Source: a virus (Duplodnaviria; Caudoviricetes). From it: a DNA stretch of 29,738 nt. The notes beneath the pieces were generated by a model, which saw only the letters and a program-made list of their open reading frames with translations, was not told the DNA's origin and did no database searches. Shown one piece after another: positions 3,618 through 27,273 of the stretch. The DNA lies in the IMG/VR virus record IMGVR_UViG_3300034073_000627, positions 1-29,738 of that record; one strand, given 5' to 3'. The number at the start of each line of letters is the position of its first letter. The stretch's first letter is position 1. A program made the position numbers and the translations under genes.

Positions 3618-4586
3618 ATGACAACCTTTAAAGAAATACGAGGAACTGCAGTTCAATCAGTATCTTCAGATCCTACAAATCCAGAAGTAGGTCAAATTTG
3701 GTATAATAATTCTATTGGAGTTTTAAAAGGTTATCAATTAACAGCTGCTGCTTGGGCATCTGGTGGAAATTTAGGAACAGCTAGATATGGAATAGCAGGT
3801 GCAGGAACTCAAACAGCAGGATTAGGATTTGGTGGTTACGGTTCTAGTGCATATCAAGCAGCTACAGAGGAATATGATGGATCAACGTGGACGGCTGGTG
3901 GAAGTTTATCAACAGCAAGATATACATTAGCAGGTGCTGGTATTCAAACAGTAGGTTTAGCATTTGGAGGATCTAATGGAGGGGGAAAACAATCTGCTAC
4001 AGAAGAATATAATGGATCATCTTGGGGAGGAGGTGGAAATTTAGCTACAGCTAGATCTAATTTAGGTGGAGCTGGTACACAAACTGCTGGTTTAGCTTTT
4101 GGTGGTCAAACAACTGTATTTGCTGTAAACACAGAAGAGTATGATGGATCGGCTTGGACATCAGGTGGGAATATGTCAACAGGAAGAGGTTCTTTTGCAA
4201 ATGCTGGAACACAAACTGCAGGTTTAGCGGCGGGTGGATATACAGGCACAAATTCTAATGCAACAGAAGAATATGATGGTTCGACTTGGACTAATGGTGG
4301 AAATTTAGCTACAGCAAGAACTGGAATAGCAGGATGCGGAACTCAAACAGTTGGTTTAGCATTTGGTGGTGATACTGGAAGTAGATCAAGTGCAACAGAA
4401 GAATATAATGGAACTTCTTGGACAAATTCAACTTCAATGACAACAGCAAGATATCAATTAGGAGGTTGTGGAACACAATCTTCAGGTTTAGCTTTTGGTG
4501 GAAATTCAACAGCTATAACTAATGCAACAGAAGAATACACAGGTGCATTTAATTCAGCTAAAACCATAACAACATCAACAACATAA
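3618..4586 (+). CDS. Kelch-like beta-propeller protein (6 blades), putative receptor-binding/fibre protein
   Basis: SD GGAGG. Six ~44-aa repeats W-x-x-G-G-N-L-x-T-A-R-x-x-L-A-G-A-G-T-Q-T-A-G-L-x-F-G-G-x(6-9)-T-E-E-Y-D-G carry the Kelch GG/Y/W signature. N-terminal SDP..GQIWYN module. Confidence 0.85.
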   Translation: MTTFKEIRGTAVQSVSSDPTNPEVGQIWYNNSIGVLKGYQLTAAAWASGGNLGTARYGIAGAGTQTAGLGFGGYGSSAYQAATEEYDGSTWTAGGSLSTARYTLAGAGIQTVGLAFGGSNGGGKQSATEEYNGSSWGGGGNLATARSNLGGAGTQTAGLAFGGQTTVFAVNTEEYDGSAWTSGGNMSTGRGSFANAGTQTAGLAAGGYTGTNSNATEEYDGSTWTNGGNLATARTGIAGCGTQTVGLAFGGDTGSRSSATEEYNGTSWTNSTSMTTARYQLGGCGTQSSGLAFGGNSTAITNATEEYTGAFNSAKTITTSTT

Positions 4587-4587
4587 C

Positions 4588-6384
4588 ATGACAACATACA
4601 AAGAAATTTTTGGTAAATACGTCAAGAACTACAGTTCAGATCCAACATCCGATGCTGAAGGTCAGATATGGTATAATACCACTTCGGGAACGTTTAAGAG
4701 TGTTTTAGCTACAGATTCATGGAGTTCTGGTGGAAGTATGGCAACAGCTAGAACAAATTTAGCAGGACTTGGTACACAAACAGCAGGACTTGGAGCAGGT
4801 GGATATACTGCTACAACAGCAAATTCAACAGTAACAGAAGAATATGATGGAACTTCTTGGACAGCAGGAGGAAATTTAAATACAGGTAGATATACTTTAA
4901 GAGGTTGTGGAACTCAAACGGCAGGTTTAGTTTTTGGTGGTGCTACTTATCCCCCTCTTGTTTTAAAAAATAATGCAGAAGAATATGATGGCTCTGCTTG
5001 GACAAATGGAGGAACTTTATCAACTGCAAGAAGATTGTTAGCAGGTGCTGGAATACAAACTGCTGGACTTGCGTTTGGTGGTCTTACAACAGTAAATTCA
5101 AACGCCACAGAAGAATACGATGGCTCTGCTTGGACGGCAGGAGGAAACATGGGAACGGCAAGACAAAATTTAGCAGGAGCAGGTTTACAAACAGCGGGAC
5201 TAGCTTTTGCCGGTTATACAACAGTAAATACTGCAGCAACAGAAGAATATGATGGCTCTGCTTGGGCAGGTGGTGGAAACATGGGTACAGCAAGATATGG
5301 TTTAGCAGGTGCTGGAACTCAAACAGCAGGACTTGGTTTTGGTGGACGAACAACAGTTAATGTTACAGCTACAGAAGAATATAATGGATCAGCATGGGCA
5401 ACAGGTGGAAATATGGGAACAGCAAGATTTTATTTAGCAGGTTGTGGAATACAAGATTCAGCTTTAGCATTTGGCGGAGCTGCACCAGCAAGAACAACAG
5501 CCACCGAAGAATACAATTTCTCATCTCTTATCCAAGTAGCAGCAGCGTGGGCGAGTGGGGGAAATATGGCTACAGCTAGATATAATTTAAATGGTTGTGG
5601 AACGCAAACAGTAGGTCTTGCTTTTGGCGGAAACACTGGATCTAGAACAGCCGCAACTGAAGAATACAATGGTTCAGCTTGGACTGGTGGTGGAAATATG
5701 GGAACTGCTAGAGATCAATTAGGTGGAGCAGGTACTCAAACTGCTGGTTTAGGTTTTGGTGGTAATGCTACAGGAACTCCTGTTTCAGATACAGAAGAAT
5801 ATGACGGATCAGCTTGGACATCAGGTGGTAGTTTGAATACTGCAGTAAGATATCTTTGGGGAGCAGGAACTCAAACAGCGGGTTTAAAATTTGGTGGTTT
5901 TACAACAACAGCAGCTTCAAACGCAACAGAAGAATACGACGGCTCTGCTTGGGCAAGTGGTGGAAATATGGGAACAGCAAGATTTGTTTTAGCAGGTTGT
6001 GGATTACAAACTGCAGGACTTGCTTTTGGTGGAAATACAGGAACAGGTATTCAAAATATAACAGAAGAATATGATGGTTCCGCTTGGACAGCAGGTGGTA
6101 ATATGAATACTGGAAGAACAGAATTAGCAGGAGCAGGCACACAAACTGCAGGTTTAGGATTTGGTGGTTATACAACAACTAGTCTTGCCAACACAGAAGA
6201 ATACAATGGAACATCTTGGACAAATTCAACTTCTTTAACTACAGCTAGATATGGTTTAGGTGGTGCAGGAACTCAAACAGTAGGATTAGCATTTGGTGGT
6301 TTTTCAACAGCAGCTACAGCAGCCACAGAAGAATACACAGGGGCATATTCTGTAGATAACGTAAAAACAATAACAACAAGTTAG
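4588..6384 (+). CDS. Kelch-like double beta-propeller protein (2x6 blades)
   Basis: Twelve repeats counted, with linker NFSSLIQVAAA after blade 6. Same N-terminal module and KTITTS C-terminus as the preceding gene. Confidence 0.85.
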   Translation: MTTYKEIFGKYVKNYSSDPTSDAEGQIWYNTTSGTFKSVLATDSWSSGGSMATARTNLAGLGTQTAGLGAGGYTATTANSTVTEEYDGTSWTAGGNLNTGRYTLRGCGTQTAGLVFGGATYPPLVLKNNAEEYDGSAWTNGGTLSTARRLLAGAGIQTAGLAFGGLTTVNSNATEEYDGSAWTAGGNMGTARQNLAGAGLQTAGLAFAGYTTVNTAATEEYDGSAWAGGGNMGTARYGLAGAGTQTAGLGFGGRTTVNVTATEEYNGSAWATGGNMGTARFYLAGCGIQDSALAFGGAAPARTTATEEYNFSSLIQVAAAWASGGNMATARYNLNGCGTQTVGLAFGGNTGSRTAATEEYNGSAWTGGGNMGTARDQLGGAGTQTAGLGFGGNATGTPVSDTEEYDGSAWTSGGSLNTAVRYLWGAGTQTAGLKFGGFTTTAASNATEEYDGSAWASGGNMGTARFVLAGCGLQTAGLAFGGNTGTGIQNITEEYDGSAWTAGGNMNTGRTELAGAGTQTAGLGFGGYTTTSLANTEEYNGTSWTNSTSLTTARYGLGGAGTQTVGLAFGGFSTAATAATEEYTGAYSVDNVKTITTS

Positions 6385-6413
6385 TTTACATTATGAATAA
6401 ATTGACTTATACT
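6385..6413 (+). promoter_or_regulatory. Sigma70-type promoter
   Basis: TTTACA (6385-6390), 17 nt, TATACT (6408-6413) in the intergenic gap, followed by SD AAGGAG (6421-6426). Confidence 0.7.
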
Positions 6414-6433
6414 AACAACCAAGGAGCATAAAT

Positions 6434-6730
6434 ATGGCACTTTTTATATATGGTACAGCAACTAACTATGGCAAGAACTTCTTTACAGTAGAAGATAGAA
6501 GAAACTTTTTCTTACGAAGTTATCCAGGCGATGTTTGGGTAATTGGTAATAATGAAAAAGGAGCTCTATGGCTAGCTGAAAAAAATGGAGTTGAAAAAAC
6601 TAAAGCAGAAGCACAAGCAATTGTTGATGCAGAAGTTACAAAAGCTCAAGCAGCTTATGACGCTTTACCAGAAGAACAAAAAAATAGACCAGGATCAAAT
6701 CAAAGACCGACTGCTATAACTTTACCATAG
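6434..6730 (+). CDS. Hypothetical 98-aa protein between propeller genes (possible fibre assembly factor)
   Basis: Has its own promoter and a strong SD, and a helical C-terminal half (KTKAEAQAIVDAEVTKAQAAYD). Function is inferred from position only. Confidence 0.75.
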   Translation: MALFIYGTATNYGKNFFTVEDRRNFFLRSYPGDVWVIGNNEKGALWLAEKNGVEKTKAEAQAIVDAEVTKAQAAYDALPEEQKNRPGSNQRPTAITLP

Positions 6731-6739
6731 GTCACTCTC

Positions 6740-8512
6740 ATGACGACCTACAATGAGCTAGCAGGATTTAGAGTTAATTACTTAAGTACAGATCCTACAT
6801 TAAATTCAGGAAACGAAGGTCAGGTGTGGTATAACTCTACATCTGGAACTCTTAAAGCATTAGTTCAAATTAAATCGTGGGCCGCTGGTGGTAACATGGG
6901 TACTGCTAGACGTGGTTTAGCAGGAGTAGGAACTCAAACATTATCATTAGGTTTTGGTGGATATACAACAACTAATTCTAATGCAACAGAGGAATACAAC
7001 GGAACTTCCTGGACAACGGGAGGAAATTTAGGAACTGCAAGAAATACTTTAGCAGGAGCTGGAACTCAAACGGTAGGATTAGGATTTGGTGGTTTTACAA
7101 CAGTAGCTTCAAATGCAACAGAAGAATACGATGGATCAGCGTGGACTGGTGGTGGAAACATGGGAACGGCAAGATATAATTTAGGTGGAGCTGGAACACA
7201 AACAGCAGGATTAGGTTTTGGTGGATATACAACAACGAACGTTGCGAACACAGAAGAATATGATGGTTCCGCTTGGACAGCAGGAGGAAATTTAAATACT
7301 ACTAGAAGGCAATTAGCAGGAACAGGATTACAAACAGCAGGTTTAGCTTTTGGTGGTTTTACAACAGTAGCTTCAAATGCAACAGAAGAATACGATGGAT
7401 CAGCGTGGACTAGTGGAGGAAATATGGGAACTGCTAGACGTACTTTAGGAGGTGCTGGCACACAAACATTATCGTTAGGTTTTGGTGGATTAACAACAGT
7501 AGTTGTTGCTAACAATGAAGAATATGATGGGACAAGTTGGACAGTTTCAACAGTTATGGCTACAGCTAGACGTGGTTTAGGTGGAGCTGGAACACAAACA
7601 GCAGGATTAGGTTTTGGAGGATTTACAACAACAAACGTTGCCAACACCGAAGAATTCACTTCTTCAATCAATGTTACTACAGCAGCGGCGTGGGCGAGCG
7701 GGGGGAATTTGAGCACGGCGAGATATTTATTAGCAGGAGCAGGAACGCAAACGGCAGGATTAGGATTTGGTGGATATACAACAACACTTCAATCAGCCAC
7801 AGAAGAATATGATGGCTCTGCGTGGACAGCTGGAGGAAGTTTAAATACAGCAAGACGTAATTTAGCTGGTTGTGGAATTCAAACTGCTGGTTTGGCTTTT
7901 GGTGGTTATACAACAACAGGTGTTAATAATACAGAAGAATATGATGGATCTGCTTGGACTACAGGAGGAAATTTAGGAACTGCTAGATATTCTTTAGCAG
8001 GAGCAGGAACTCAAACTGCTGGATTAGGATTTGGTGGATATATAGGTACAAATTCTAACGCTACAGAAGAATATGATGGAACTTCTTGGACAGGTGGAGG
8101 AAATTTAGCTACAGCAAGAAGTGGTCCTGGAGGAGCAGGAACGCAAACAGCAGGTTTAGGATTTGGAGGTAGTGGACCTACTGCAGCAACAGAAGAATAT
8201 GATGGATCTTCTTGGACAGCTGGAGGAAATTTAGCTACAGCAAGAAGTGGTCCTGGAGGAGCAGGAACTCAAACAGCTGGATTAGCTTTTGCTGGAACTA
8301 CAGGATCAGTTTCAGCAGCCACAGAAGAATATAATGGCTCTTCATGGACAAATTCAATTTCTTTAACAACAGCTAGACGTTCTTTAGGTGGTGCAGGAAC
8401 GCAAACTGCAGGTTTAGCATTTGGTGGTTTTACAACAACCAATGTTGCAAACACAGAAGAATACACAGGAGCAATAGTTACAACAACTCCTTCAACCTTG
8501 ACAACATCATAA
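6740..8512 (+). CDS. Kelch-like double beta-propeller protein (2x6 blades)
   Basis: Twelve repeats, linker FTSSINVTTAAA after blade 6, N-terminal TDP..EGQVWYN module, ends LTTS. Confidence 0.85.
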   Translation: MTTYNELAGFRVNYLSTDPTLNSGNEGQVWYNSTSGTLKALVQIKSWAAGGNMGTARRGLAGVGTQTLSLGFGGYTTTNSNATEEYNGTSWTTGGNLGTARNTLAGAGTQTVGLGFGGFTTVASNATEEYDGSAWTGGGNMGTARYNLGGAGTQTAGLGFGGYTTTNVANTEEYDGSAWTAGGNLNTTRRQLAGTGLQTAGLAFGGFTTVASNATEEYDGSAWTSGGNMGTARRTLGGAGTQTLSLGFGGLTTVVVANNEEYDGTSWTVSTVMATARRGLGGAGTQTAGLGFGGFTTTNVANTEEFTSSINVTTAAAWASGGNLSTARYLLAGAGTQTAGLGFGGYTTTLQSATEEYDGSAWTAGGSLNTARRNLAGCGIQTAGLAFGGYTTTGVNNTEEYDGSAWTTGGNLGTARYSLAGAGTQTAGLGFGGYIGTNSNATEEYDGTSWTGGGNLATARSGPGGAGTQTAGLGFGGSGPTAATEEYDGSSWTAGGNLATARSGPGGAGTQTAGLAFAGTTGSVSAATEEYNGSSWTNSISLTTARRSLGGAGTQTAGLAFGGFTTTNVANTEEYTGAIVTTTPSTLTTS

Positions 8513-8533: not shown

Positions 8534-9220
8534 ATGACAGAGAAGAGAAATATTAAGAGTTTAATACAACAAGAAGAAGCTCACTTAAATAATCTACTAG
8601 ATGCAGGCGATCTCAATGCATTCAAAGGAATGGTTGATGAACTTCGTGATACTTGGACTAAAAAACAAATATTCAGAACAGAAACAGAAGCTAGAATTTC
8701 AGTGCTTCAAGATGCAAAGTATCCAACACTATCTGCAAAATACTGGCAATGTGTTAGAGAGCAAAATGTATTTCTTGAAAATTTAATGTCTTTATCTTTT
8801 GATTATAGACGTAATGATGCAAAGATTAAATGGCTACAAAAGAAATTGGAAACTGAAACAGATGAATATAAATTAGAGTGTTATAAAATTGATTTAGATG
8901 AAAAGATTTATGCAAAAGCAAACATGGAATTAGTTGCAAAAGATCGTATGAGAGAAATTAATATGTGGTCTAATTTAAAGAAAGAATTTGATAATGGAAC
9001 GTTTGATACTAAAAATGTCAACACTCACCAATTAGAATCGTATCATCAGATTATGAAAGGCAAAGCAAAGACCTTGACTCCTGGTTCTTCACAAGCAGAA
9101 GTATTCAATGTTCTTGGTCAACTGCAAACGATTGAAAGAGTAAAAGAAGAAAAAGGTTTACTTAAACAAGATGAGAAGAAAGCAATTGGACAACCTACAT
9201 TCGGCAAACCAACCAGTTAA
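8534..9220 (+). CDS. Hypothetical helical/coiled-coil protein, 228 aa
   Basis: Long ORF with charged, heptad-like segments (AKYWQCVREQ...AKDRMREI). No family recognised with certainty. Confidence 0.75.
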   Translation: MTEKRNIKSLIQQEEAHLNNLLDAGDLNAFKGMVDELRDTWTKKQIFRTETEARISVLQDAKYPTLSAKYWQCVREQNVFLENLMSLSFDYRRNDAKIKWLQKKLETETDEYKLECYKIDLDEKIYAKANMELVAKDRMREINMWSNLKKEFDNGTFDTKNVNTHQLESYHQIMKGKAKTLTPGSSQAEVFNVLGQLQTIERVKEEKGLLKQDEKKAIGQPTFGKPTS

Positions 9221-9986
9221 ACAGTTATTCTTTTTAGTCGCATTACCAAGATCTGGTAATACACTATTTGGTTCAATCATGAATCAAAATCCGAATATCG
9301 CTGTAACTCCAAACTCTATTACATTAGAAATAATGAAGGATATATTTCTTCTTAAACAAACTGATGTCTTTCAAAATTATCCAGATCATAAATCATTAGA
9401 TAACGTATTAGATATGGTATTTGACCAATATTATAAAGACTGGCCACAACAGTATATTATAGATAGAGGTCCTGTAATGACACCTGGTAATTTTATGTTA
9501 ATGAACAAGCATTTCAAACGTCCATTTAAATGCATTATTATTTTAAGAGATGTATTAGATGTTCTTGCATCTTATATTAAATGGTTTGAAAAAGAGCCAA
9601 CTAGCTTTGTTCACAGATACGGCAAACAAACTATAGAAGAAAAATTATGGATGTTAATGAATAAAGATGGAGCAATTGCAAAAGATTTAGAAGCTATAAA
9701 GAATTCTTATAACTATCCACAAATTTGTCATTATTTAAAATATGATGATTTAGTAAATCAGCCAGAAATTGAAATTAATAAAATATATGATTTTTTACAA
9801 ATACCTAAATTTAATCATAATTTTAAATCCTTGAAACAGTTTCAAATAAATGGTATGGGTTATGACGATACAGTAGTTGGAAATAAAATGCACACCATTA
9901 GAGAAGAGATTAGAAAGGAAGACAATCCTTACAGATCACAAATACCACAAAGTATTGTGAATGCGTATGGACATATAAAATTTTAA
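9171..9986 (+). CDS. Sulfotransferase family protein
   Basis: 5'-PSB loop LPRSGNTL, 3'-PB-like RDVLDVLAS, and the YDDLVNQP motif. The true start may be TTG at 9186. Confidence 0.8.
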   Translation: MRRKQLDNLHSANQPVKQLFFLVALPRSGNTLFGSIMNQNPNIAVTPNSITLEIMKDIFLLKQTDVFQNYPDHKSLDNVLDMVFDQYYKDWPQQYIIDRGPVMTPGNFMLMNKHFKRPFKCIIILRDVLDVLASYIKWFEKEPTSFVHRYGKQTIEEKLWMLMNKDGAIAKDLEAIKNSYNYPQICHYLKYDDLVNQPEIEINKIYDFLQIPKFNHNFKSLKQFQINGMGYDDTVVGNKMHTIREEIRKEDNPYRSQIPQSIVNAYGHIKF

Positions 9987-10375
9987 TGAAGATATTAATA
10001 TTTGGATTACCAGGATCAGGCAAAACTACCTTTGCTAAAAAATTAGTTGAGAATAAAAAGATACCTCACTTTAATGCTGATGATATTAGAAAGTTATTTG
10101 AAGATTGGGATTTTACAGAAACAGGTAGAAAGCGACAGGCAAACAGAATGATGACGATGTGTGATCTTGCAGCAAAGCATGTAGTAGTAGATTTTGTTTG
10201 TCCATTTGAATCTTACCGATCATTCTATGATATGAAGATTTGGATGAACACCATTGATAAAGGAAGATTTGAAGATACTAATAAAGTATTTGAGAAACCT
10301 AAAAAGGTTGATTTTGAAATAACTGATTTTAATTATAACTCTATTATAGAAAGAATTCATGGTCGATTACTCTAA
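9986..10375 (+). CDS. Adenylylsulfate (APS) kinase-like P-loop kinase
   Basis: GLPGSGKTT, NADDIR, RxRQAxR, DFVCP and FEKP motifs match the CysC-like pattern. Unusually short at 129 aa. Confidence 0.7.
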   Translation: MKILIFGLPGSGKTTFAKKLVENKKIPHFNADDIRKLFEDWDFTETGRKRQANRMMTMCDLAAKHVVVDFVCPFESYRSFYDMKIWMNTIDKGRFEDTNKVFEKPKKVDFEITDFNYNSIIERIHGRLL

Positions 10376-10712
10376 ACCCACAGCACAGATGTTAGGTAGA
10401 TGGCAACCATTTCATGATGGCCATTTAGCTTTATTTAAAGAGATATTAAAGAAAACAGGACAGGTGCAAATTATGGTAAGAACGATGCCAAAGTCAGATA
10501 ACAATCCATTTGAATTTGAAGAAATAAAGAAACGTATTGAAGAAAAATTAAAAGATTATGTAGGTAAATTTGAAGTTATCAAAGTTGCAAATATTACCAA
10601 TATTTGTTATGGTCGAGATGTAGGATATAAGATTGAAGAGATAGTCCTACCTAAACAGATACAAGAGATATCTGCAACAAAGATTAGAAAAGAGATGAAG
10701 AATGAAATTTAA
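10359..10712 (+). CDS. HxGH nucleotidyltransferase (cytidyltransferase-like)
   Basis: GRWQPFHDGH signature, NPF motif and C-terminal ISATKIR. Confidence 0.8.
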   Translation: MVDYSKPTAQMLGRWQPFHDGHLALFKEILKKTGQVQIMVRTMPKSDNNPFEFEEIKKRIEEKLKDYVGKFEVIKVANITNICYGRDVGYKIEEIVLPKQIQEISATKIRKEMKNEI

Positions 10713-11349
10713 CTTTGTATTTTTTGGTCAGTCCGTACTTCGTTATGAAGTTCCAGTAGATATCTTTAATGAAATTAATGGTATTTACGAAAACAATTAT
10801 GGCAATCTTGCAAAAGCTAATAAACAATTAATTGGTAAAATAATGGATGAACGTTCTCTCTATTATGATGGAGATGATACTTCAAAGATGCATAAACATA
10901 ATTATTTATCTCCACGTGTATATGAATGGTTTATGTCAGCTTATAAACATTATTTAGATTGGAATAAGATTATTAAATATCAGTTACACTTAAATTCAAT
11001 TTGGGTAAATGAAATGAAAGCTAATGAATATAATCCAATTCATATTCATCAAGGTAATTTAGCTACAGGATTAACTTCTGTGATGATTTTAAAAGTACCA
11101 TCTCATTATGGAGTTGAGTATTCTGCAGAAGATAAACCACAAAATGGAAGATTACAAATATTAGGTTCTGCTGCAGGTCAATTTGCAAATATTAATTATA
11201 CACCACCAATGCAAGTAGGAGATTTTTATGTATTTCCATATGACATGAGACATTGTGTTTATCCATTTAACGGTACTGATGAAACACGAAGAACATTAGC
11301 TGCAAATTGTGATGTATTATATAACCCACTTGAAAACAGAAAAGGATAA
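10702..11349 (+). CDS. 2OG-Fe(II) oxygenase-like protein
   Basis: WVN..EYNPIHIH...FPYDMRHCVYPF...RRTLAAN, the double-stranded beta-helix HxH...H...R pattern. Confidence 0.75.
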   Translation: MKFNFVFFGQSVLRYEVPVDIFNEINGIYENNYGNLAKANKQLIGKIMDERSLYYDGDDTSKMHKHNYLSPRVYEWFMSAYKHYLDWNKIIKYQLHLNSIWVNEMKANEYNPIHIHQGNLATGLTSVMILKVPSHYGVEYSAEDKPQNGRLQILGSAAGQFANINYTPPMQVGDFYVFPYDMRHCVYPFNGTDETRRTLAANCDVLYNPLENRKG

Positions 11350-11351
11350 TA

Positions 11352-11939
11352 ATGTTACATAAAGAACTTTGGTTTCCAACACAAATCTATATTAAACAAT
11401 TTAATTTAGATAATAGAGAATTAGAAAGAAACATTATTGAATGGTCTAAAAAGGATTCAGGTTTACAAAAGACAAATGTTAATGGTTGGCATTCACCATC
11501 TGATATGCATAAAAAACAAGAATATAGAAATTTAGCAGAAGCATTATTTCATATGCAATTTGATATTTACAAAGAAGAGTGTTTAGATAATGAACCTTAT
11601 CTTGGTAATATGTGGGCGAACATCAATCCACCAGGAGGACATAATAGACCTCATATTCATCCAAATTCTTTATGGTCAGGGGTTTATTATATTAAGACAT
11701 CTAAAGATTGTGGTCATTTAAAGATAGAAGATCCACGAGCTGTTGCTGCAATGACACTTCCAAAAAGAAATAATCAAACATTACCACAATATTTATGGAA
11801 AGAAGTTCATTATGAACCTGTTGAAGGAAGATGTATTATGTTTCCATCATGGTTAAATCATACTGTTGATGTGAACAAATCTAATGATATTAGGATATCA
11901 GTTTCATTCAATTTCTTGCAAACAGGGATGTTTGTATAA
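11352..11939 (+). CDS. 2OG-Fe(II) oxygenase (TIGR02466-like)
   Basis: WANINPPGGHNRPHIHPNSLWSGVYY...FPSWLNHTV...RISVSFN. Confidence 0.82.
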   Translation: MLHKELWFPTQIYIKQFNLDNRELERNIIEWSKKDSGLQKTNVNGWHSPSDMHKKQEYRNLAEALFHMQFDIYKEECLDNEPYLGNMWANINPPGGHNRPHIHPNSLWSGVYYIKTSKDCGHLKIEDPRAVAAMTLPKRNNQTLPQYLWKEVHYEPVEGRCIMFPSWLNHTVDVNKSNDIRISVSFNFLQTGMFV

Positions 11940-11977: not shown

Positions 11978-13831
11978 ATGCCAATATCAAAGCTACAATT
12001 TAGACCAGGAATAGATAAACAAAACACTCAATACGGCGCAGAAGGCGGATGGACTGGGTGTGACATGGTCCGTTTTAGGTATGGTGTTCCTGAAAAGATA
12101 GGTGGATGGCAACCAGCCGTTGGTAATAACTTAATTGGTGCTGCACGAGACATTCATACTTATACAGATTTAGCAGGAGACTCATTAGCGGTCATCGGTA
12201 CAGATAGAAAGTTATATACTTATTATGATAACAATTTTTATGACATCACACCTCTATCAACAACTATTCCAGCAGTATTCACATTCACATCAGGCACAAC
12301 CATTGTAAACGTTCTAGCAACATCTAATGGTTCAATTGAAGGAGACTTTGTTACATTCTCAACAGTATCTGGAGTTAGTGTTGTAAATATTACAAATGCA
12401 AATATGCAACAAGAATTTGAAATTCAAAATATTGTAGATTCTAATAATTTTACAATAGATGTTGCATCTATTGCAACACCAGGAGTTGTTACAACTTCTG
12501 GAACAGCGGCAGGTGCTGCATTTCAAATAAATATAGGAGAGGATGTTACACAAATTGGTAATGGATGGGGAGCCGGTGCGTGGGGATTTTCAACTTGGAA
12601 CACACCAAGACCAACGGGAGTTATTACTGCTAATCCAAGAATTTGGCAAATAGATAACTTTGGTGAAGATATTATTGCAACAATTGTAGGTGGTAAAACT
12701 TATTACTTTGACACTTCTGCATTTTTACCATCAAGAAATACTAGAGCTACCTTATTAGCAAATGCTCCAACACAATCTAACTTTATGGTTATATCTCCAA
12801 GAGATAGACATGTGATATTCTTTGGTACACAAACAACACCAGGAACAAGTGCAACTTACGATCCAATGGCCGTGCTCTTTGGTTCACAAGAATCTATTAC
12901 AGATTTTACACCCAATGCAACTAATACCGCAGGATTTCAAAGATTATCCTCTGGTAATAGAATTGTAACTGCGGTTCCAACAAGAGGAGACATATTAATA
13001 TTAACCAATACATCCGCTCACTCAATGCAGTTCGTAGGACCACCTTTTACATTTTCATTTAAACAAATTGGTACGAACTGCGGAACGTTGTCCGCGCATT
13101 CTGCTGTAGAAGCGGAGAACGTTGTTTATTGGATGTCGGATGGAAGTTTTTATTTGTATGACGGAGTCGTGAAGGAAATTCCATGTTCAGTACAAGATTA
13201 TGTGTTTCAAGATTTAAATGAAGATGAACACTCTATTATTTATTCTGGAGTTAATCTTGAATTTTCAGAAGTGAATTGGTTTTATGCATCAGGTAGTTCT
13301 ACTGCAATAGATAGAGTTGTAACTTATAACTATCTTGAAAGAGTATGGACGATTGGAACTTTAGCTAGAACAACTTGGGCTTCTAAAGACGTATTTACAC
13401 ATCCATTAGCTACTAAATATATGCCAAACTCAACGACGCTTGCACAACCAACTGTTATTGGATTAACAGCAGGTGTGTCCACTTTATATGATCAAGAAAA
13501 AGGATTAAATGATGATACAAGTCCTATTACAGCTTTTATAGAATCGGGAGACATAGACATTGTCGATGGAGATAATTCAATGTTTGTAAAAAGATACATT
13601 CCCGATTTTAAAGATCAACAAGGTGCACTTAATATTCAATTTTTAGCAAGACAATATCCAGGTTCAGTACAAACAGTTGCATCAAGCACTGTTGCATATT
13701 CTACAACAACTAAAGTAGACGTTAGAGTTCGCGCTCGTCAAATTGCCGTTAAAATTATAAGCACAGATATTGATACTAAATGGAAATACGGAACATTGAG
13801 GATTGACGGACAAATTGATGGACTTCGTTAA
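11978..13831 (+). CDS. Putative tail nozzle / DNA-stabilisation protein (tail tubular B / P22 gp10-like)
   Basis: 617-aa beta-rich protein (FRPGIDK, VRFRYGVPEKIGGW, EVNWFY, YNYLE.VW..G.LART.W). Size and position before the ejection genes fit. Confidence 0.65.
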   Translation: MPISKLQFRPGIDKQNTQYGAEGGWTGCDMVRFRYGVPEKIGGWQPAVGNNLIGAARDIHTYTDLAGDSLAVIGTDRKLYTYYDNNFYDITPLSTTIPAVFTFTSGTTIVNVLATSNGSIEGDFVTFSTVSGVSVVNITNANMQQEFEIQNIVDSNNFTIDVASIATPGVVTTSGTAAGAAFQINIGEDVTQIGNGWGAGAWGFSTWNTPRPTGVITANPRIWQIDNFGEDIIATIVGGKTYYFDTSAFLPSRNTRATLLANAPTQSNFMVISPRDRHVIFFGTQTTPGTSATYDPMAVLFGSQESITDFTPNATNTAGFQRLSSGNRIVTAVPTRGDILILTNTSAHSMQFVGPPFTFSFKQIGTNCGTLSAHSAVEAENVVYWMSDGSFYLYDGVVKEIPCSVQDYVFQDLNEDEHSIIYSGVNLEFSEVNWFYASGSSTAIDRVVTYNYLERVWTIGTLARTTWASKDVFTHPLATKYMPNSTTLAQPTVIGLTAGVSTLYDQEKGLNDDTSPITAFIESGDIDIVDGDNSMFVKRYIPDFKDQQGALNIQFLARQYPGSVQTVASSTVAYSTTTKVDVRVRARQIAVKIISTDIDTKWKYGTLRIDGQIDGLR

Positions 13832-13835
13832 AAAT

Positions 13836-14465
13836 ATGACATTAAAAGAAAAGAAAAAATTATATTGGAAAAAATGGTATTCTAAAAATAAACAATGGAA
13901 AAAAGAATATCGTTTAAAATATAAAGAAAGAGATCAACAAACTAAAAAATTATGGCGATTAAAAAATAAAGAAATAATAAAAGAAAAAATGAGACTTTAT
14001 CGTTTAAAACATAAAGAAAGAGATAAAAAATATTCTAAAGAATATCGTATAAAAAATTCAGAAAAAATTAAAAAAAGAATGAAACTTTATCGTATAAGAT
14101 CAAGAAAAAAGATAGCAACTTATGTAAGAACAAAATTTCAAAATGATTTAAAATTTAGAACTCTTATGAATTTAAGACATAGAATTTATATGGCTTTAAA
14201 AGGAACTGTAAAATCTAAAAGAACAATAGATTTATTAGGTACATCAATTGATAATTTATGGATTCATTTAGAAAAAACATTTAAACCAGGAATGACTAAA
14301 GATAATTATGGTAAAATTTGGCAAATTGATCATAAAATTCCATGTGCCGCGTTTGATTTGACCAAACCAGAAGAACAAGCTAAATGTTTTCACTACACTA
14401 ATTTACAAGCTTTATTTGCAAAAGAAAATTTATCAAAAGGAGCTAAATTACAATGGCTAAACTAG
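13836..14465 (+). mobile_element. Free-standing HNH-type (homing) endonuclease gene
   Basis: C-terminal WQIDHKIPCAAFDLT...CFHYTNLQALFAKENLSKG, with a Lys/Arg-rich repeated N-terminus. ATG at 13836 lies just after the upstream stop, and the DNA is more A-rich than its flanks. Confidence 0.8.
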
Positions 14466-14968: not shown

Positions 14969-15141
14969 TGAAAGAAATAAAAGTAATTTGTGATTCAGAA
15001 ATCACAATTAAGAATATAAAGACAGGACACATCTATAAAAACGAAGATGAGGTTAAAGCAGATATTAATGCTAAACCTGAAGATATTAAACGTGATGTTA
15101 AAATTATAGTTCCTACCATTCCCTTATTTAGCAAAACATGA
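14968..15141 (+). CDS. Small hypothetical protein, 57 aa; not in ORF track
   Basis: MKEIKVICDSEITIKNIKTGHIYKNEDEVKADINAKPEDIKRDVKIIVPTIPLFSKT*. TAATG overlap upstream and ATGA overlap downstream. Confidence 0.8.
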   Translation: MKEIKVICDSEITIKNIKTGHIYKNEDEVKADINAKPEDIKRDVKIIVPTIPLFSKT

Positions 15142-15761
15142 CACTTCCAAATGAGTGGAGAAGAATGCAGCACTATAGAAATATAGGTCTGAAATTTAAT
15201 AAAGTTTTAGATATTGGTGCTTTTGAAGGTGTTTGGACACAAAATTTTAAAAACATATATCCTGATGCAGATGTCTTAATGATTGAAGCAAATGAAGAGA
15301 AAGAAGAAATATTAAAAAAGATTGGTTCTTATAAAATAGCATTATTAGGAAAAGAGAATAATAAAGAAGTAGACTATTATAAATGTTTAGATGGTATGCA
15401 AACAGGAAATACTGTTTATAAAGAAAATACACATTTTAAATTTGCACCTATAAAGAAAACAACTATTACTTTACCTACCTTATTAAATTCAGAAGATGGT
15501 TATGATTTAATTAAAATGGATGTACAAGGATCTGAATTAGATATTATCAAAGGAGCTATTCCTATTATTGAGAAAACAAATCACTTAATACTTGAAACAC
15601 AAACTCTTAATTTTAATGACAAAGCACCAAGATTGACTGATATTGTATGTTATTTAAATACATTAAACTTTTCATTAATTGATGTTATCGACGTACACTA
15701 CTCATTAAATAATATATTATTTCAACTAGATGTTTTATTTGAAAGAAGAATTAATGATTAA
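15138..15761 (+). CDS. FkbM-family methyltransferase
   Basis: VLDIGAFEG motif I and IKMDVQGSELDIIKG signature. Confidence 0.85.
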   Translation: MTLPNEWRRMQHYRNIGLKFNKVLDIGAFEGVWTQNFKNIYPDADVLMIEANEEKEEILKKIGSYKIALLGKENNKEVDYYKCLDGMQTGNTVYKENTHFKFAPIKKTTITLPTLLNSEDGYDLIKMDVQGSELDIIKGAIPIIEKTNHLILETQTLNFNDKAPRLTDIVCYLNTLNFSLIDVIDVHYSLNNILFQLDVLFERRIND

Positions 15762-16455
15762 ATATTATACTCCTATTGCAGAAATTTATAATTTTCTTGG
15801 TAAATTTATTAATAAAGATATGAAAGTATTAGAACTAGGTCCTGGAGTTCTTCCTTTTCCATATGCAACTCATTTTTGTGGTTGGTTAGATTCTGAAAGA
15901 GAAAAATTATCTAATTATAAAGTAGTTGATTTTTCTAAAGATAGGTTTCCATATGAAGACAAAGAATTTGATTTTATTTATGCAAGACATGTTTTAGAAG
16001 ATTTATATAATCCATTTAATTGCATAGAAGAAATGTCTAGAATTGCAAAAGCTGGATTTATTGAATGTCCATCTCCTTTAACTGAAGTATGTAGAGAATC
16101 TGAAAATTGGAAAGATGAAAATTATGAATTTAAGTGGAGAGGATATAATCATCATCATTATTTTGTTTGGAATGATGGTCAATTAAACTTTTTACATAAA
16201 TTTCCATCGGTTGAATATATGAAGATAAATCAAGAAGATTATTTATTAGAATTACTAAAAGATAAGTATTATTGGAATACTTATTATCTATGGAAAGATA
16301 ACATAAAATATAAACATCATGAACATCCAAAAGACTATTTTGCTCCTTGTGATAAAGAATATGCAGAATTAATAGTAAAAGGCATTAATAGTTCTATAAA
16401 TTTTACTGGAAACTTTAAGAAAAAAATGTTAAAGATAGAGAGTGAAAGAAGTTAA
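15754..16455 (+). CDS. Class I SAM-dependent methyltransferase
   Basis: VLELGPG and FPYEDKEFDFIYARHVLEDL. ATG at 15754 preferred over the track start at 15730. Confidence 0.8.
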   Translation: MIKYYTPIAEIYNFLGKFINKDMKVLELGPGVLPFPYATHFCGWLDSEREKLSNYKVVDFSKDRFPYEDKEFDFIYARHVLEDLYNPFNCIEEMSRIAKAGFIECPSPLTEVCRESENWKDENYEFKWRGYNHHHYFVWNDGQLNFLHKFPSVEYMKINQEDYLLELLKDKYYWNTYYLWKDNIKYKHHEHPKDYFAPCDKEYAELIVKGINSSINFTGNFKKKMLKIESERS

Positions 16456-16458
16456 AAT

Positions 16459-17403
16459 ATGAATCCTAAAGGTGGAACAGAGATATTAAAAGAGCAACTA
16501 CTTGCTCAATTACCAGAAGAATCCATTGATGGAATTAATTTAATTGGTTCTATTTGTAATCCAGCGCTTGTTAAAGAAGATAAGATTAATGTTCTTTGGC
16601 AGCATTTAAGTTATGATCAACCTAATGTACAGTACATGCGCGATCGTAAATTCGTTGATTCTATTGATTACTTTATCTATGTCAGCCATTGGCAATACAA
16701 TAAGTTTAGAGAAATTTATAAAATTCCAGAATACAAATCTTTTGTAATTAAAAATGCAACTCATGCATTTGAACCGGTAAAAAAAGAACCGTTGATAATT
16801 ACCTCTGATAAAATCAAACTATTATATACATCTACTCCATGGAGAGGTTTAGCTATTCTTATTAAAGCTGTTGAGATATTAAACAAAACAAGAAATGATT
16901 TTGAAGTAGATATTTATTCATCTACTAAAATATATGGATCTGCTTTTGAAGAAAATGAAAAAGATAGATTTGAACCTTTATTTAATAAATGTAGAAATAC
17001 ACCTAATGTTAATTATCATAGTTATGCAGATAATAACACAATAAGAAATGCAGTACAAAAAGCTCACATTTATGCCTATCCATCTATTTTTGAAGAAACA
17101 TCTTGTTTAGCTATTATAGAAGCGATGAGCGCGGGCTGTCATGTAGTGACAACGAATTACGGAGCGTTGCCAGAAACATGTGGAGAATTTGCAACAATGA
17201 TTGAATTTGATTCTAGTGGCCAGAACTTAATTGAACGATATGCAGAAACATTAAATTCTGTAATTGACAATTATAGAGATAATATATACAAGGATGATTT
17301 AGAAATGCAAATTAAATACTATAACAAAAACTATTCATGGGAAACCAGAATACAAGAATGGAGAAATTTTTTAAATTATGTCAGAACAGAAAAAACACGT
17401 TAA
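16459..17403 (+). CDS. Glycosyltransferase, GT-B fold (GT4-like)
   Basis: YTSTPWRGL and YPSIFEETSCLAIIEAMSAG (E-X7-E motif), then VVTTNYGALPE. Confidence 0.85.
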   Translation: MNPKGGTEILKEQLLAQLPEESIDGINLIGSICNPALVKEDKINVLWQHLSYDQPNVQYMRDRKFVDSIDYFIYVSHWQYNKFREIYKIPEYKSFVIKNATHAFEPVKKEPLIITSDKIKLLYTSTPWRGLAILIKAVEILNKTRNDFEVDIYSSTKIYGSAFEENEKDRFEPLFNKCRNTPNVNYHSYADNNTIRNAVQKAHIYAYPSIFEETSCLAIIEAMSAGCHVVTTNYGALPETCGEFATMIEFDSSGQNLIERYAETLNSVIDNYRDNIYKDDLEMQIKYYNKNYSWETRIQEWRNFLNYVRTEKTR

Positions 17404-18124
17404 ACTATTTATAGCAACACCAGCATTTGGTCATCAAGTTACAACAAACTATGCAAATAGTTTATTAAAATTTGTATCAACATCACACCCAAGACTTGCA
17501 GTATCTTCAGCAGTTCATTTACAATCAGGAATGGCTTTAGTTACACAAGCAAGAAATAACTGTGTAGCGTATTTCTTAAATTCAGATTGCACGCATTTTT
17601 TATTTATAGACGCGGACATTGGATTTGAACCAGAAGCTATTTACAGATTAATAGAAAGAGATGTACCTTTATGTTTAACACCATACCCAGTTAAAGGTTA
17701 TGGTAAAGATAATCAATTACAGTTTATTGTACATTTCCCTGACAAAGATAATGTTAGAATAGATAAAAATGGTTTTGCAGAAATTATTGCAGGACCTACT
17801 GGATTCATGATGATTAAGAGAGAAGTATTTGAAAAACTTGCAGAGAAATATCCAGAACGAAAAACAGTCAATAAACAATTAGTAGGTAATAAAGTAGAAA
17901 CAATGGAAAAAGGTTGGTATACATTCTTTGAAACAGCACAAGATCCTGAAAATGGATATCTTGGTGAAGACATTGCTTTCTGTAGATTATGGACTAATAT
18001 TGGCGGTAAAATATACGCGGATACACAAACGCCGCTAACGCATTTCGGATCGCATGCATTTCATGGTAGTTTAAACACTATGTTTTCTAAACAAAAACCA
18101 ATTGACGATACGTATAAAAAGTAG
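17378..18124 (+). CDS. Glycosyltransferase-like protein, GT-A fold
   Basis: ARN, HFLFIDADI (DxD), TGFMMIKR and GEDIAFC motifs. Confidence 0.75.
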   Translation: MSEQKKHVKLFIATPAFGHQVTTNYANSLLKFVSTSHPRLAVSSAVHLQSGMALVTQARNNCVAYFLNSDCTHFLFIDADIGFEPEAIYRLIERDVPLCLTPYPVKGYGKDNQLQFIVHFPDKDNVRIDKNGFAEIIAGPTGFMMIKREVFEKLAEKYPERKTVNKQLVGNKVETMEKGWYTFFETAQDPENGYLGEDIAFCRLWTNIGGKIYADTQTPLTHFGSHAFHGSLNTMFSKQKPIDDTYKK

Positions 18125-18130
18125 TAAATT
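18102..18130 (+). promoter_or_regulatory. Putative sigma70 promoter for the acyltransferase/ejection operon
   Basis: TTGACG (18102-18107), 17 nt, TAAATT (18125-18130). Confidence 0.55.
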
Positions 18131-18167
18131 CAACGTTTCGGTGTATCTACAAGCTTAACCGACTTGC

Positions 18168-18608
18168 ATGGATTTCATATTTGATAAAGATAAACTTAAA
18201 GATATGCATGAGGTTATATCTTTGTATAAGAAGTTTGATAGGTATAAAGATTTAACAAGAGAAGATCTTTACTACCACATACTTCCATCTTTCAAATTGA
18301 ATCAATTCAAAATACACAAGGACAAAAACGATATGATTGCTTTTACAAATTGGGCTTATTTAGACAAAGACGCTGAAAATCGTTTTATTTCAACAGGAAT
18401 TTTAGAAGACAAAGACTGGAAAAGTGGTGATAATGTATGGCATATTGACACAGTTTGTGTTAAAAATATTAAAAAAGTTATGTCTTGGACTAGGAAATAC
18501 TTTACTAATTTACTTGGAATAAACAAACCTGTTCATTGGTTAAGATTATCTGAAGATGGTAAAGTATATAGAAAAGCCACAAGATTTACCAAGGAGATTT
18601 ATAAATAA
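18168..18608 (+). CDS. RTX toxin-activating lysine acyltransferase (HlyC)-like protein
   Basis: ILPSFKLNQF, AFTNWAYL and DWKSGDNVWHID align by eye with HlyC VLPAIQANQY, AYCSWANL and DWTSGDRKWFID. Confidence 0.8.
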   Translation: MDFIFDKDKLKDMHEVISLYKKFDRYKDLTREDLYYHILPSFKLNQFKIHKDKNDMIAFTNWAYLDKDAENRFISTGILEDKDWKSGDNVWHIDTVCVKNIKKVMSWTRKYFTNLLGINKPVHWLRLSEDGKVYRKATRFTKEIYK

Positions 18609-26157: not shown

Positions 26158-26200
26158 AATAATTTGTTGCATTAATCTCAAAAAGTTGTATGACGCGCTT

Positions 26201-26776
26201 ATGGATAATAAAATATTAGTACATAAACATTTAATAGTCCGAGCGGAAGCTAAAAATCCTCCAATGGATGAAACTATCCTTACAGAATGGTTTAAGAAAT
26301 TTATAGAAGAAATAGGTATGAAGGTTATGATGGGGCCATACGTGAAGTATTCTCATATGATCGGGAACCGTGGAATTACAGGAGCTGCAATCATTGAAAC
26401 ATCTCATATAGTAATGCATGTTTGGGATGAACCTGACCCCGCCTTGCTTCAGTTTGATGTTTACTCATGTGGTGAATTTGATCCTGAAACAATATGTGAA
26501 AAGATAAAGAAAGATTTTAATGCAACAAAAATAGAATATAAATTTTTAGATCGTGAACATGATCTAAAAGAAATACATACTTTAACATATACTGATCCGA
26601 TTGTTAAAAATTATGAAAGTAGAGAAATAGAAAAGAAAAATAATGCATTATTAAGAAGTAGAAAAGAAGTTGAGATTAATGGAAGTGGAACACATGGTTA
26701 TAGAATTAAAGAAGGTTCTCATAAAGGTACAGTTCTTGGTCATATAATAAGAGAAAAATCAGTACTTGAAAATTAA
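26201..26776 (+). CDS. speD: Pyruvoyl-dependent S-adenosylmethionine decarboxylase-like proenzyme with C-terminal extension
   Basis: HKHLI, GITGAAIIETSHIVMHVW (self-cleavage Ser in ETSH) and DVYSCG. ATG at 26201 preferred over TTG at 26186. Confidence 0.75.
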   Translation: MDNKILVHKHLIVRAEAKNPPMDETILTEWFKKFIEEIGMKVMMGPYVKYSHMIGNRGITGAAIIETSHIVMHVWDEPDPALLQFDVYSCGEFDPETICEKIKKDFNATKIEYKFLDREHDLKEIHTLTYTDPIVKNYESREIEKKNNALLRSRKEVEINGSGTHGYRIKEGSHKGTVLGHIIREKSVLEN

Positions 26777-26800
26777 TAAATAATATTTATATATACCGCA

Positions 26801-26853
26801 GGTTGCATCATGTGGATGGACCAATTAACTTGCTTTAAAAGGAGATAATTATG
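26801..26853 (+). promoter_or_regulatory. ROSE-like RNA thermometer in the Hsp20 5' UTR
   Basis: Hairpin 1 at 26801-26822 (GGT..CATC/GATG..ACC). Hairpin 2 at 26823-26850, AATTA-A-CTTGCTT/AAGGAG-A-TAATT, has the UUGCU motif opposite the SD. Confidence 0.7.
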
Positions 26854-27273
26854 ACAAACATTGAAGTTTTCAATAATTTAAGCAAACAATTATTCAACGG
26901 ATCAACAAAGTTTTTTGATGAATCTTTTGAAAATATTTTTGACACGTGGTCAAAAGCACAATCATTTCCATTCTATAACGTAGTAAAATACTCAAAAGGT
27001 AAATACGGTTTAGAAATCGGTTTAGCTGGCTACAGTAAAAAAAACATACTTGTAGAGGTTAAAGATGGTATCTTAACAGTAGAAGGAAAAGTAGAAGATA
27101 AAAATGTAGACTATGTTAAACAAGGTCTAGCATTTAGAAAATTTTTCAAACAGTTTGAATTAGCTAAAGATGTAATAGTTGATGAAGCTGAAATGAAAGA
27201 TGGTTTACTTAAAATTAAATTTGGTTTTAATGAACCAAAAGAAATTGAAGGCGTTAAAATAGAAGTAAAATAA
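26851..27273 (+). CDS. Small heat shock protein (Hsp20/IbpA-like)
   Basis: FPFYNVV, LEIGLAGY, GILTVEG, GLAFRKFFKQFEL, AEMKDGLLKI alpha-crystallin motifs. Confidence 0.92.
   Translation: MTNIEVFNNLSKQLFNGSTKFFDESFENIFDTWSKAQSFPFYNVVKYSKGKYGLEIGLAGYSKKNILVEVKDGILTVEGKVEDKNVDYVKQGLAFRKFFKQFELAKDVIVDEAEMKDGLLKIKFGFNEPKEIEGVKIEVK

Follow-up and report, generated by a model that had tools for sequence, protein, structure and literature searches.

Sat-type ATP sulfurylases (PF01747) are proteins of about 350-400 residues, and in Allochromatium vinosum the sat gene occupies the slot upstream of aprMBA (PMC3779200). Synthesis of adenosine 5'-phosphosulfate (APS) by ATP sulfurylases is established to be pulled forward by APS kinase and pyrophosphatase (PMC11697783), and the bifunctional synthases of 3'-phosphoadenosine 5'-phosphosulfate (PAPS), such as human PAPSS1 and the Sat-CysC fusions, are chains of 550-630 residues. 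Viral cysC genes have been interpreted in print as aids to assimilation (10.1101/655167; PMC8066274), and phage fusions of HIGH proteins with kinases have been described as NadR (PMC9503650; PMC7824862). We found no description of a small ATP-sulfurylase-like enzyme in the literature covered, which did not extend to supplements that may bear on the point. The subject of this report is a viral DNA of 29,738 nucleotides (IMG/VR record IMGVR_UViG_3300034073_000627), the whole of which we call the window. It is a phage structural module, and within it a cassette of five open reading frames (ORFs) probably combines PAPS supply with a sulfotransferase for sulfation:

9171..9986, plus strand: PAPS-dependent sulfotransferase of the Sulfotransfer_3/1 type (271 aa; PF13469 E 1e-12, PF00685 E 9e-12; LPRSGNT loop)
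9986..10375, plus strand: putative trimmed APS kinase with a short lid (129 aa; P-loop; PF01583 E 4e-5; profile and fold searches)
10359..10712, plus strand: HxGH adenylyltransferase, NMNAT/NadM-derived and likely a minimal ATP sulfurylase (117 aa; H19-D-G-H22; PF01467; gene context; dimer model)
10702..11349, plus strand: 2-oxoglutarate (2OG)-Fe(II)-type oxygenase OX1 (PF13759; HxH...H)
11352..11939, plus strand: 2OG-Fe(II)-type oxygenase OX2 (PF13759; passes TIGR02466; HxH...H)

The placement of these ORFs inside a tail module by the initial annotation agrees with their coordinates, their strand and the flanking fibre and virion genes. They had also been called overlapping, which holds from the sulfotransferase to OX1 (overlaps of 1, 17 and 11 nt), whereas OX1 and OX2 are separated by a 2-nt gap. 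Median ratios of nonsynonymous to synonymous substitution against related loci, from 12-75 ungapped pairs per gene, were 0.11 for the sulfotransferase, 0.07 for the kinase, 0.05 for the transferase and 0.20 and 0.17 for the oxygenases, and the five are therefore under purifying selection rather than chance ORFs.

The case for the 117-residue transferase comes from the positions of its relatives. The kinase-transferase fusion that the initial annotation had proposed looking for in databases was found in 58 of 149 representatives of 50% clusters, where the kinase partner is trimmed, and in proteins P0314 and P0359 the transferase is joined, in opposite orders, to a full-length CysC above the TIGR00455 cut-off. 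Fusion of transferase relatives with APS kinases takes three architectures. Of 3637 longer relatives 120 were listed, the majority of them labelled APS-kinase or AAA_33, and PHROG 10255 covers both kinase and transferase. Fused relatives with the APS kinase N-terminal to the HxGH adenylyltransferase recall the bifunctional PAPS synthases and would yield the same product; unlike those synthases, the phage pair totals about 250 aa, is encoded here by two separate genes and has a transferase of independent origin.

A second position is within sulfate assimilation operons. In one alphaproteobacterial group, a single lineage represented by incomplete assemblies of 0.6-1.2 Mb, the transferase occurs in 10 of 11 genomes. 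The order cysG-cysI-cysH-DUF2061-kinase-transferase is found in nine of these ten (the contig of the tenth breaks), with cbiX in front where the contig reaches. Each of the ten has one strong PF01507 match, which is CysH, and there is therefore no CysD; Sat was found in one, away from the operon. In a sample of 401 genomes from across the Alphaproteobacteria, which includes the unpublished genome G380, seven had a transferase match. Five carriers outside SAR11 were tested: none had Sat and two had CysD matches, so the transferase is not always the sole ATP-sulfurylase candidate. A further parallel is locus L216, where cysC-transferase-pyk matches the cysC-sat-pyk of locus L196.

Some features of these neighbourhoods deserve mention in their own right. 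The small-genome marine alphaproteobacterial group (L180-L190 and L092, genomes G006 and G011-G020; L277-L290) has a full-looking assimilatory sulfate operon without cysDN and mostly without sat, which standard pathway calls would rate as incomplete. DUF2061 accompanies the pair in cys operons and in phages (L092:4865-5122; L286; L265) and is possibly a sulfate-pathway accessory. In the surface-polysaccharide islands of SAR11 and its relatives (L191, L196, L197, L214, L215, L216), sat or the small transferase repeatedly has a pyruvate-kinase-like gene at its side.

The third position is in SAR11, for which PMC5069961 (Smith et al.) reports AprBA without sat and cysDN, lists sat as absent from HTCC1062 and, in the columns of Table 3 as they stand in flattened text, appears to place both cysC and aprA in one set of five strains out of seven. 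Among 151 Pelagibacteraceae genomes (unpublished genomes G191 and G114 are within these tallies; leaving out G191 changes nothing) the transferase was present in 107, aprA in 99, Sat in 6 and CysD in 7. Transferase and aprA occurred together in 95 genomes, transferase only in 12, aprA only in 4 and neither in 40 (Fisher p 3e-21, a value that ignores kinship). In 91 of the 99 aprA genomes the transferase was accompanied by neither Sat nor CysD, and all seven CysD-bearing genomes lacked the transferase. In 24 of the 95 genomes with both genes, picked from coordinates, the transferase precedes aprA by 1.4-4.0 kb and shares its strand. The 11 such loci examined read transferase, a 264-aa gene, aprB, aprA and tauE (the aprB ORF was not called in L202), and nine have no kinase nearby. 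The 264-aa gene is presumably AprM by position, which is also how aprM was defined (PMC2211403). Beside this operon a CADD-family (TIGR04305) gene and metC are constant features (L205:5665-6333).

Relatives of the transferase fill the ATP-sulfurylase slot in four unrelated settings: the fusions, the cys operon without cysD, SAR11 aprMBA and the cysC-sat-pyk arrangement. From this context the 117-aa protein very probably has ATP-sulfurylase chemistry. Fusions, operon positions and co-occurrence lend good support to the proposal of the initial annotation that the tiny HxGH protein is a minimal ATP sulfurylase completing a PAPS pathway.

In a single-sequence search the neighbouring kinase reached adenylate kinases through its P-loop. 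With a 41-row profile, APS kinases became the best single-domain matches and the DxxR, DxxFSxxxR and FxSP-like motifs aligned. The structure model (predicted local distance difference test, pLDDT, 95) gave APS-kinase domains in all of Foldseek rows 1-22 at a TMq of about 0.7-0.8. Residues R35, F43, R48, C72 and P73 are conserved at 88-100% in 43 diverse rows, the last two within an F70-x-C72-P73 motif; the matching Arg and Phe of APS kinases presumably bind APS. The protein passes PF01583 (24.0 bits against 21.1) and falls below TIGR00455 (21.8 against 138.7 bits). It shares fold, P-loop and motifs with CysC (PDB 3uie, 2ofw, 1m7g), but has only 129 residues, a shortened lid and Cys in place of Ser in FxSP. 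Profile and fold make it a trimmed APS kinase, with a predicted conversion of APS to PAPS.

The sulfotransferase exceeds both Pfam cut-offs (PF13469, 48.9 against 27 bits; PF00685, 45.4 against 22 bits). Its P26-R-S-G-N-T31 loop, R126 and S134 are conserved in 21 dereplicated phage relatives, and we take the loop to be the 5'-phosphosulfate loop and R126/S134 to be the 3'-phosphate Arg and Ser. Sequence matches in the PDB are weak (the CurM sulfotransferase and TPST1, E 0.008-0.1), and this includes TPST1 itself at E about 0.08-0.1, the comparison that bears on tyrosylprotein sulfotransferases of the TPST/RaxST type.

Co-occurrence with sulfotransferases in phages, the other check that had been proposed, was found in the best 80 of 433 viral loci, a partly redundant set. 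All 80 have the kinase, which is directly ahead of the transferase in 68. A full sulfotransferase gene is present in 68 of the 80, 64 of them of the window's family at 24-100% identity and four of PF03567; three further loci have a weak sulfotransferase-like gene, and the remaining nine stop short, with 173-1053 nt of sequence ahead of the transferase; in two of these the break falls within a sulfotransferase. Unrelated sulfotransferases are thus swapped in while the pair stays, as would be predicted if the pair is the PAPS supply, and PAPS from the pair quite likely feeds the adjacent sulfotransferase. Among 50,697 GenBank phage records there were 12 transferase matches, fusions in the three of three inspected, and six sulfotransferase matches. 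A tree of 31 rows places five phage rows in a single clade (support 100/99) inside a larger group with the SAR11 and cys-operon copies; the tree is read without a root, and no gene donor is therefore claimed. A 1.9-kb contig (L084) filed under a Thermoplasmatota metagenome-assembled genome carries the phage cassette at 66-88% identity and is probably a mis-binned phage piece.

On the question of what is sulfated, the surroundings of the cassette are informative. It lies between three repeat-rich putative fibre genes (3618-8512) on one side and a virion structural gene (11978-13831) on the other:

3618..8512, plus strand: three repeat-rich putative fibre/receptor-binding genes and a 98-aa gene (PHROG 27227), candidate acceptors
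8534..9220, plus strand: conserved 228-aa gene overlapping the sulfotransferase start (no Pfam or PHROG match)
11978-13831: virion structural gene (PHROG 3287)

In related phage loci the 8534-9220 gene, whose product gave no match in Pfam or PHROG searches, accompanies repeat fibres and this sulfotransferase type. Sulfotransferase type follows fibre type: wherever the 8534-9220 gene or its fibres occur (37 loci of 37) the sulfotransferase is of type 0 or 4, and all eight type-1 genes are paired with collar fibres, the kinase and transferase remaining similar throughout. The co-variation points to the fibre module as target, although it may be linkage among redundant loci. A virion acceptor, the fibre or a glycan on it, is accordingly a tentative assignment that we put somewhat short of even. 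Alternatively, PAPS may be made as proposed and the sulfotransferase may act on a host surface polysaccharide or receptor, as in superinfection exclusion, or on a small molecule. SAR11 islands in which the fusion adjoins sulfotransferases and glycosyltransferases (L211, L212, L156), and the glycosyl- and methyltransferases of the window itself at 15138-18124, fit such a target; the translational coupling of the cassette to fibre genes and the tracking of fibre type with an unchanged kinase and transferase do not, and we consider it unlikely, though the most serious of the alternatives.

By sequence the transferase descends from NMN adenylyltransferases and lies outside the Sat and CysD families; no PF01507 domain with a GTPase partner was found in the 33 window ORFs. 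Closest is the adenylyltransferase domain of archaeal NMNAT/NadM (PDB 1f9a, 1ej2, 2qjt), with which it shares the GRxQPxHxGH start, the NPF motif and the first three strands. It differs in being about 25 residues shorter in its second half, in its sulfur gene contexts and in that no Nudix fusion was seen. The scores fail the cut-offs of NF002243, TIGR01527 and the NadM model (33.8/127, 30.3/181 and 38.8/397 bits). The missing residues fall between segments aligned to M. jannaschii NMNAT, in a region that we take to hold the nicotinamide-stacking Trp. Arg14, Arg41, Arg86 and Arg110 are conserved at 92-97% in 114 rows. In the same rows counterparts of the Sat HxxH, GRD loop and SGTxxR are H19/H22 (93-95%), G85 (98%), R86 (97%) and D87 (63%), and S105-A-T107-x-x-R110 (88-92%); the Sat motifs (QxRN, GRD, SGTxxR) are those of PMC3779200. 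With Sat the protein shares the HxxH superfamily, GRD-like and SGTxxR-like motifs and the gene slots ahead of aprMBA and in cysC-sat-pyk; it differs in its length of 117 aa, in having no PUA domain, QxRN or GxxKxxD, in giving no sequence match and in its predicted strand-swapped dimer.

In the monomer model residues 77-98 are left extended. Modelled as two copies with ATP, the protein scored 0.91 (best control 0.01), with contacts agreeing at 98% or more and pLDDT 92, and residues 77-84 pack on residues 6-10 and 91-95 of the partner. Twenty of 30 solved homodimers attained the dimer-score mark, as did one of 23 single chains; the protein's own alignment and the included ATP make these counts rough. 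A strand-swapped homodimer is predicted to complete the sheet of the Rossmann fold and supports a working enzyme of 117 residues.

Several observations weigh against reading the pair as a PAPS supply. Family, PDB-sequence and fold searches with the transferase lead to NMNAT/NadM and PPAT, all under curated cut-offs. The first Sat in the Foldseek list stands at rank 42, alignment with a Sat by hhalign gives 12%, and no Sat match was obtained in Pfam/NCBIfam (PF01747) or in the PDB profile search. The sulfate-binding QxRN and GxxKxxD of Sat are absent, the QxRN position reading G13-R14-W15-Q16-P17. Most SAR11 copies lie in a betaine/one-carbon region with the kinase as sole sulfur-activation neighbour. 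Among 84 distant loci, a sulfotransferase-like gene lies no more than three genes away in 17 (two of the PAPS-independent ASST type), eight lie in a cys operon and ten have only DUF2061, whereas 49 showed no sulfur gene near the transferase (25 loci of at least 4 kb, many from T4-like phage, and 24 under 4 kb). The redundancy of the phage loci, the kinship ignored by the Fisher value, the single cys-operon lineage and possible mere linkage to the fibres count on the same side. In metagenomic T4-like contexts (L265-L302) the fused pair follows adenylosuccinate-synthetase-like and Fe-S assembly genes, often with DUF2061 behind, and in L307-L310 QueC-like and GTP cyclohydrolase I genes lie close to it; in such contexts the pair may serve to modify nucleotides or DNA.

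This ancestry raises the question of whether the pair is an NAD-salvage unit, a reversed NadR of NMN adenylyltransferase and nicotinamide-riboside-type kinase, with the sulfotransferase drawing on host PAPS. The NMNAT/NadM matches, public labels of NMN adenylyltransferase, the NADAR gene preceding the fusion in Sano and Bacata, which is a further point against PAPS supply, and known phage NadM/NadR systems (PMC9503650) are what it would lead one to expect. It is nevertheless very unlikely: the kinase groups with APS kinases (a nicotinamide riboside kinase first appears at E 0.014), NadD is present in 142 of the 151 SAR11 genomes, the transferase lacks roughly 25 residues that M. jannaschii NMNAT has, and the cys and apr operon positions are left unexplained.

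Equally improbable is the usual reading of viral cysC, in which the kinase and transferase would serve as auxiliary metabolic genes to enhance sulfur assimilation by the host. Viral cysC and cysH have been so interpreted (bioRxiv 10.1101/655167) and relatives of the pair do sit in a cysH-cysI operon; however, neither cysH nor cysI was found in the 33 window ORFs or in the common neighbours scanned from the 80 loci, a PAPS consumer lies next door, and Pelagibacter has no reductive sulfate pathway (PMC5069961; 10.64898/2026.04.03.716430). The latter, which surveyed 135 Pelagibacter genomes in 2026, records aprA-aprB without assimilatory reduction and, in its accessible portion, mentions no such enzyme. 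That cultured marine SAR11 lack assimilatory sulfate reduction was part of the initial annotation; the argument drawn from it is reversed, since with the transferase in 107 of 151 genomes, many SAR11 carrying the same kinase-transferase pair, the likely host group, instead of missing the genes, is where they came from or holds sister copies.

HxGH enzymes use NTP/pyrophosphate chemistry, and this, with a cysH operon and APS-kinase fusions that require APS synthesis from ATP, makes it just as doubtful that the transferase handles APS by another reaction (such as APS plus phosphate to ADP) or activates another small oxyanion (phosphonate or sulfonate), although QxRN is absent and an APS-consuming step of either kind would fit near aprMBA.

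In the PAPS-supply reading, ATP and sulfate would be converted to APS and pyrophosphate at the HxGH site of the 117-aa protein, pulled forward by the kinase and host pyrophosphatase. The trimmed kinase would convert APS to PAPS, and the adjacent sulfotransferase would spend it late in infection on something that the phage itself makes, tail fibres or a glycan attached to them being the likeliest candidates. In SAR11 the 117-aa enzyme would act after AprBA and in reverse.

The oxygenases appear to be a separate matter. The facial triad of 2OG-Fe(II) oxygenases is HxD/E...H; OX1 and OX2 pass the PF13759 cut-off and both have HxH...H instead. OX2 relatives occur in 251 of the GenBank phage records, against 12 for the transferase, and are widespread in cyanophages without sulfur genes. 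The virion gene at 11978-13831 has its best cultured matches in DSL-LC04 (47%) and the Pelagibacter phages HTVC027P and HTVC023P (41%), and we therefore assign the window, from virion-gene matches that do not establish the host itself, to an HTVC023P-type pelagiphage-like tail module. HTVC027P (MN698241.1) shares the tail-module order and has three oxygenases alone in the cassette slot; kinase, transferase and sulfotransferase were all not found in the searches run on it. Within the tail-modification island the oxygenases thus form a variable component of their own, and the suggestion that they create hydroxyl acceptors for sulfation is unsupported.

Elsewhere in the window, 15138-18608 is a second modification block with FkbM-type and class I methyltransferases, GT1 and GT2-like glycosyltransferases and an HlyC-family acyltransferase-like gene. 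An HNH/endonuclease VII-like gene (13803-14465) behind the virion protein occurs in just two of the 80 related loci, and S-adenosylmethionine decarboxylase-like and Hsp20 genes (26186-27273) lie close to the endolysin.

Taken at its fullest, and more tentatively than any of its parts, the proposal is that the transferase is a third kind of ATP sulfurylase, derived from NMN adenylyltransferase and acting as a strand-swapped dimer. It would be the missing partner of AprBA in SAR11, yielding ATP from sulfite oxidation, and pelagiphages would employ it, paired with a mini APS kinase, in sulfating tail fibres of their own. Such a change to the virion is unreported and could tune host recognition or immunity evasion. 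If this is true, a PAPS synthase of about 250 residues would become available, many viral 'cysC' and 'nadM' auxiliary genes would instead be taken to provide PAPS for sulfation directed by the phage, and predictions of sulfate auxotrophy made from the genomes of other lineages would be corrected. The reported absence of sat and cysDN from SAR11 with AprBA leaves APS without a known outlet, and ATP-sulfurylase activity of the small protein would fill that gap in the most abundant bacteria of the ocean.

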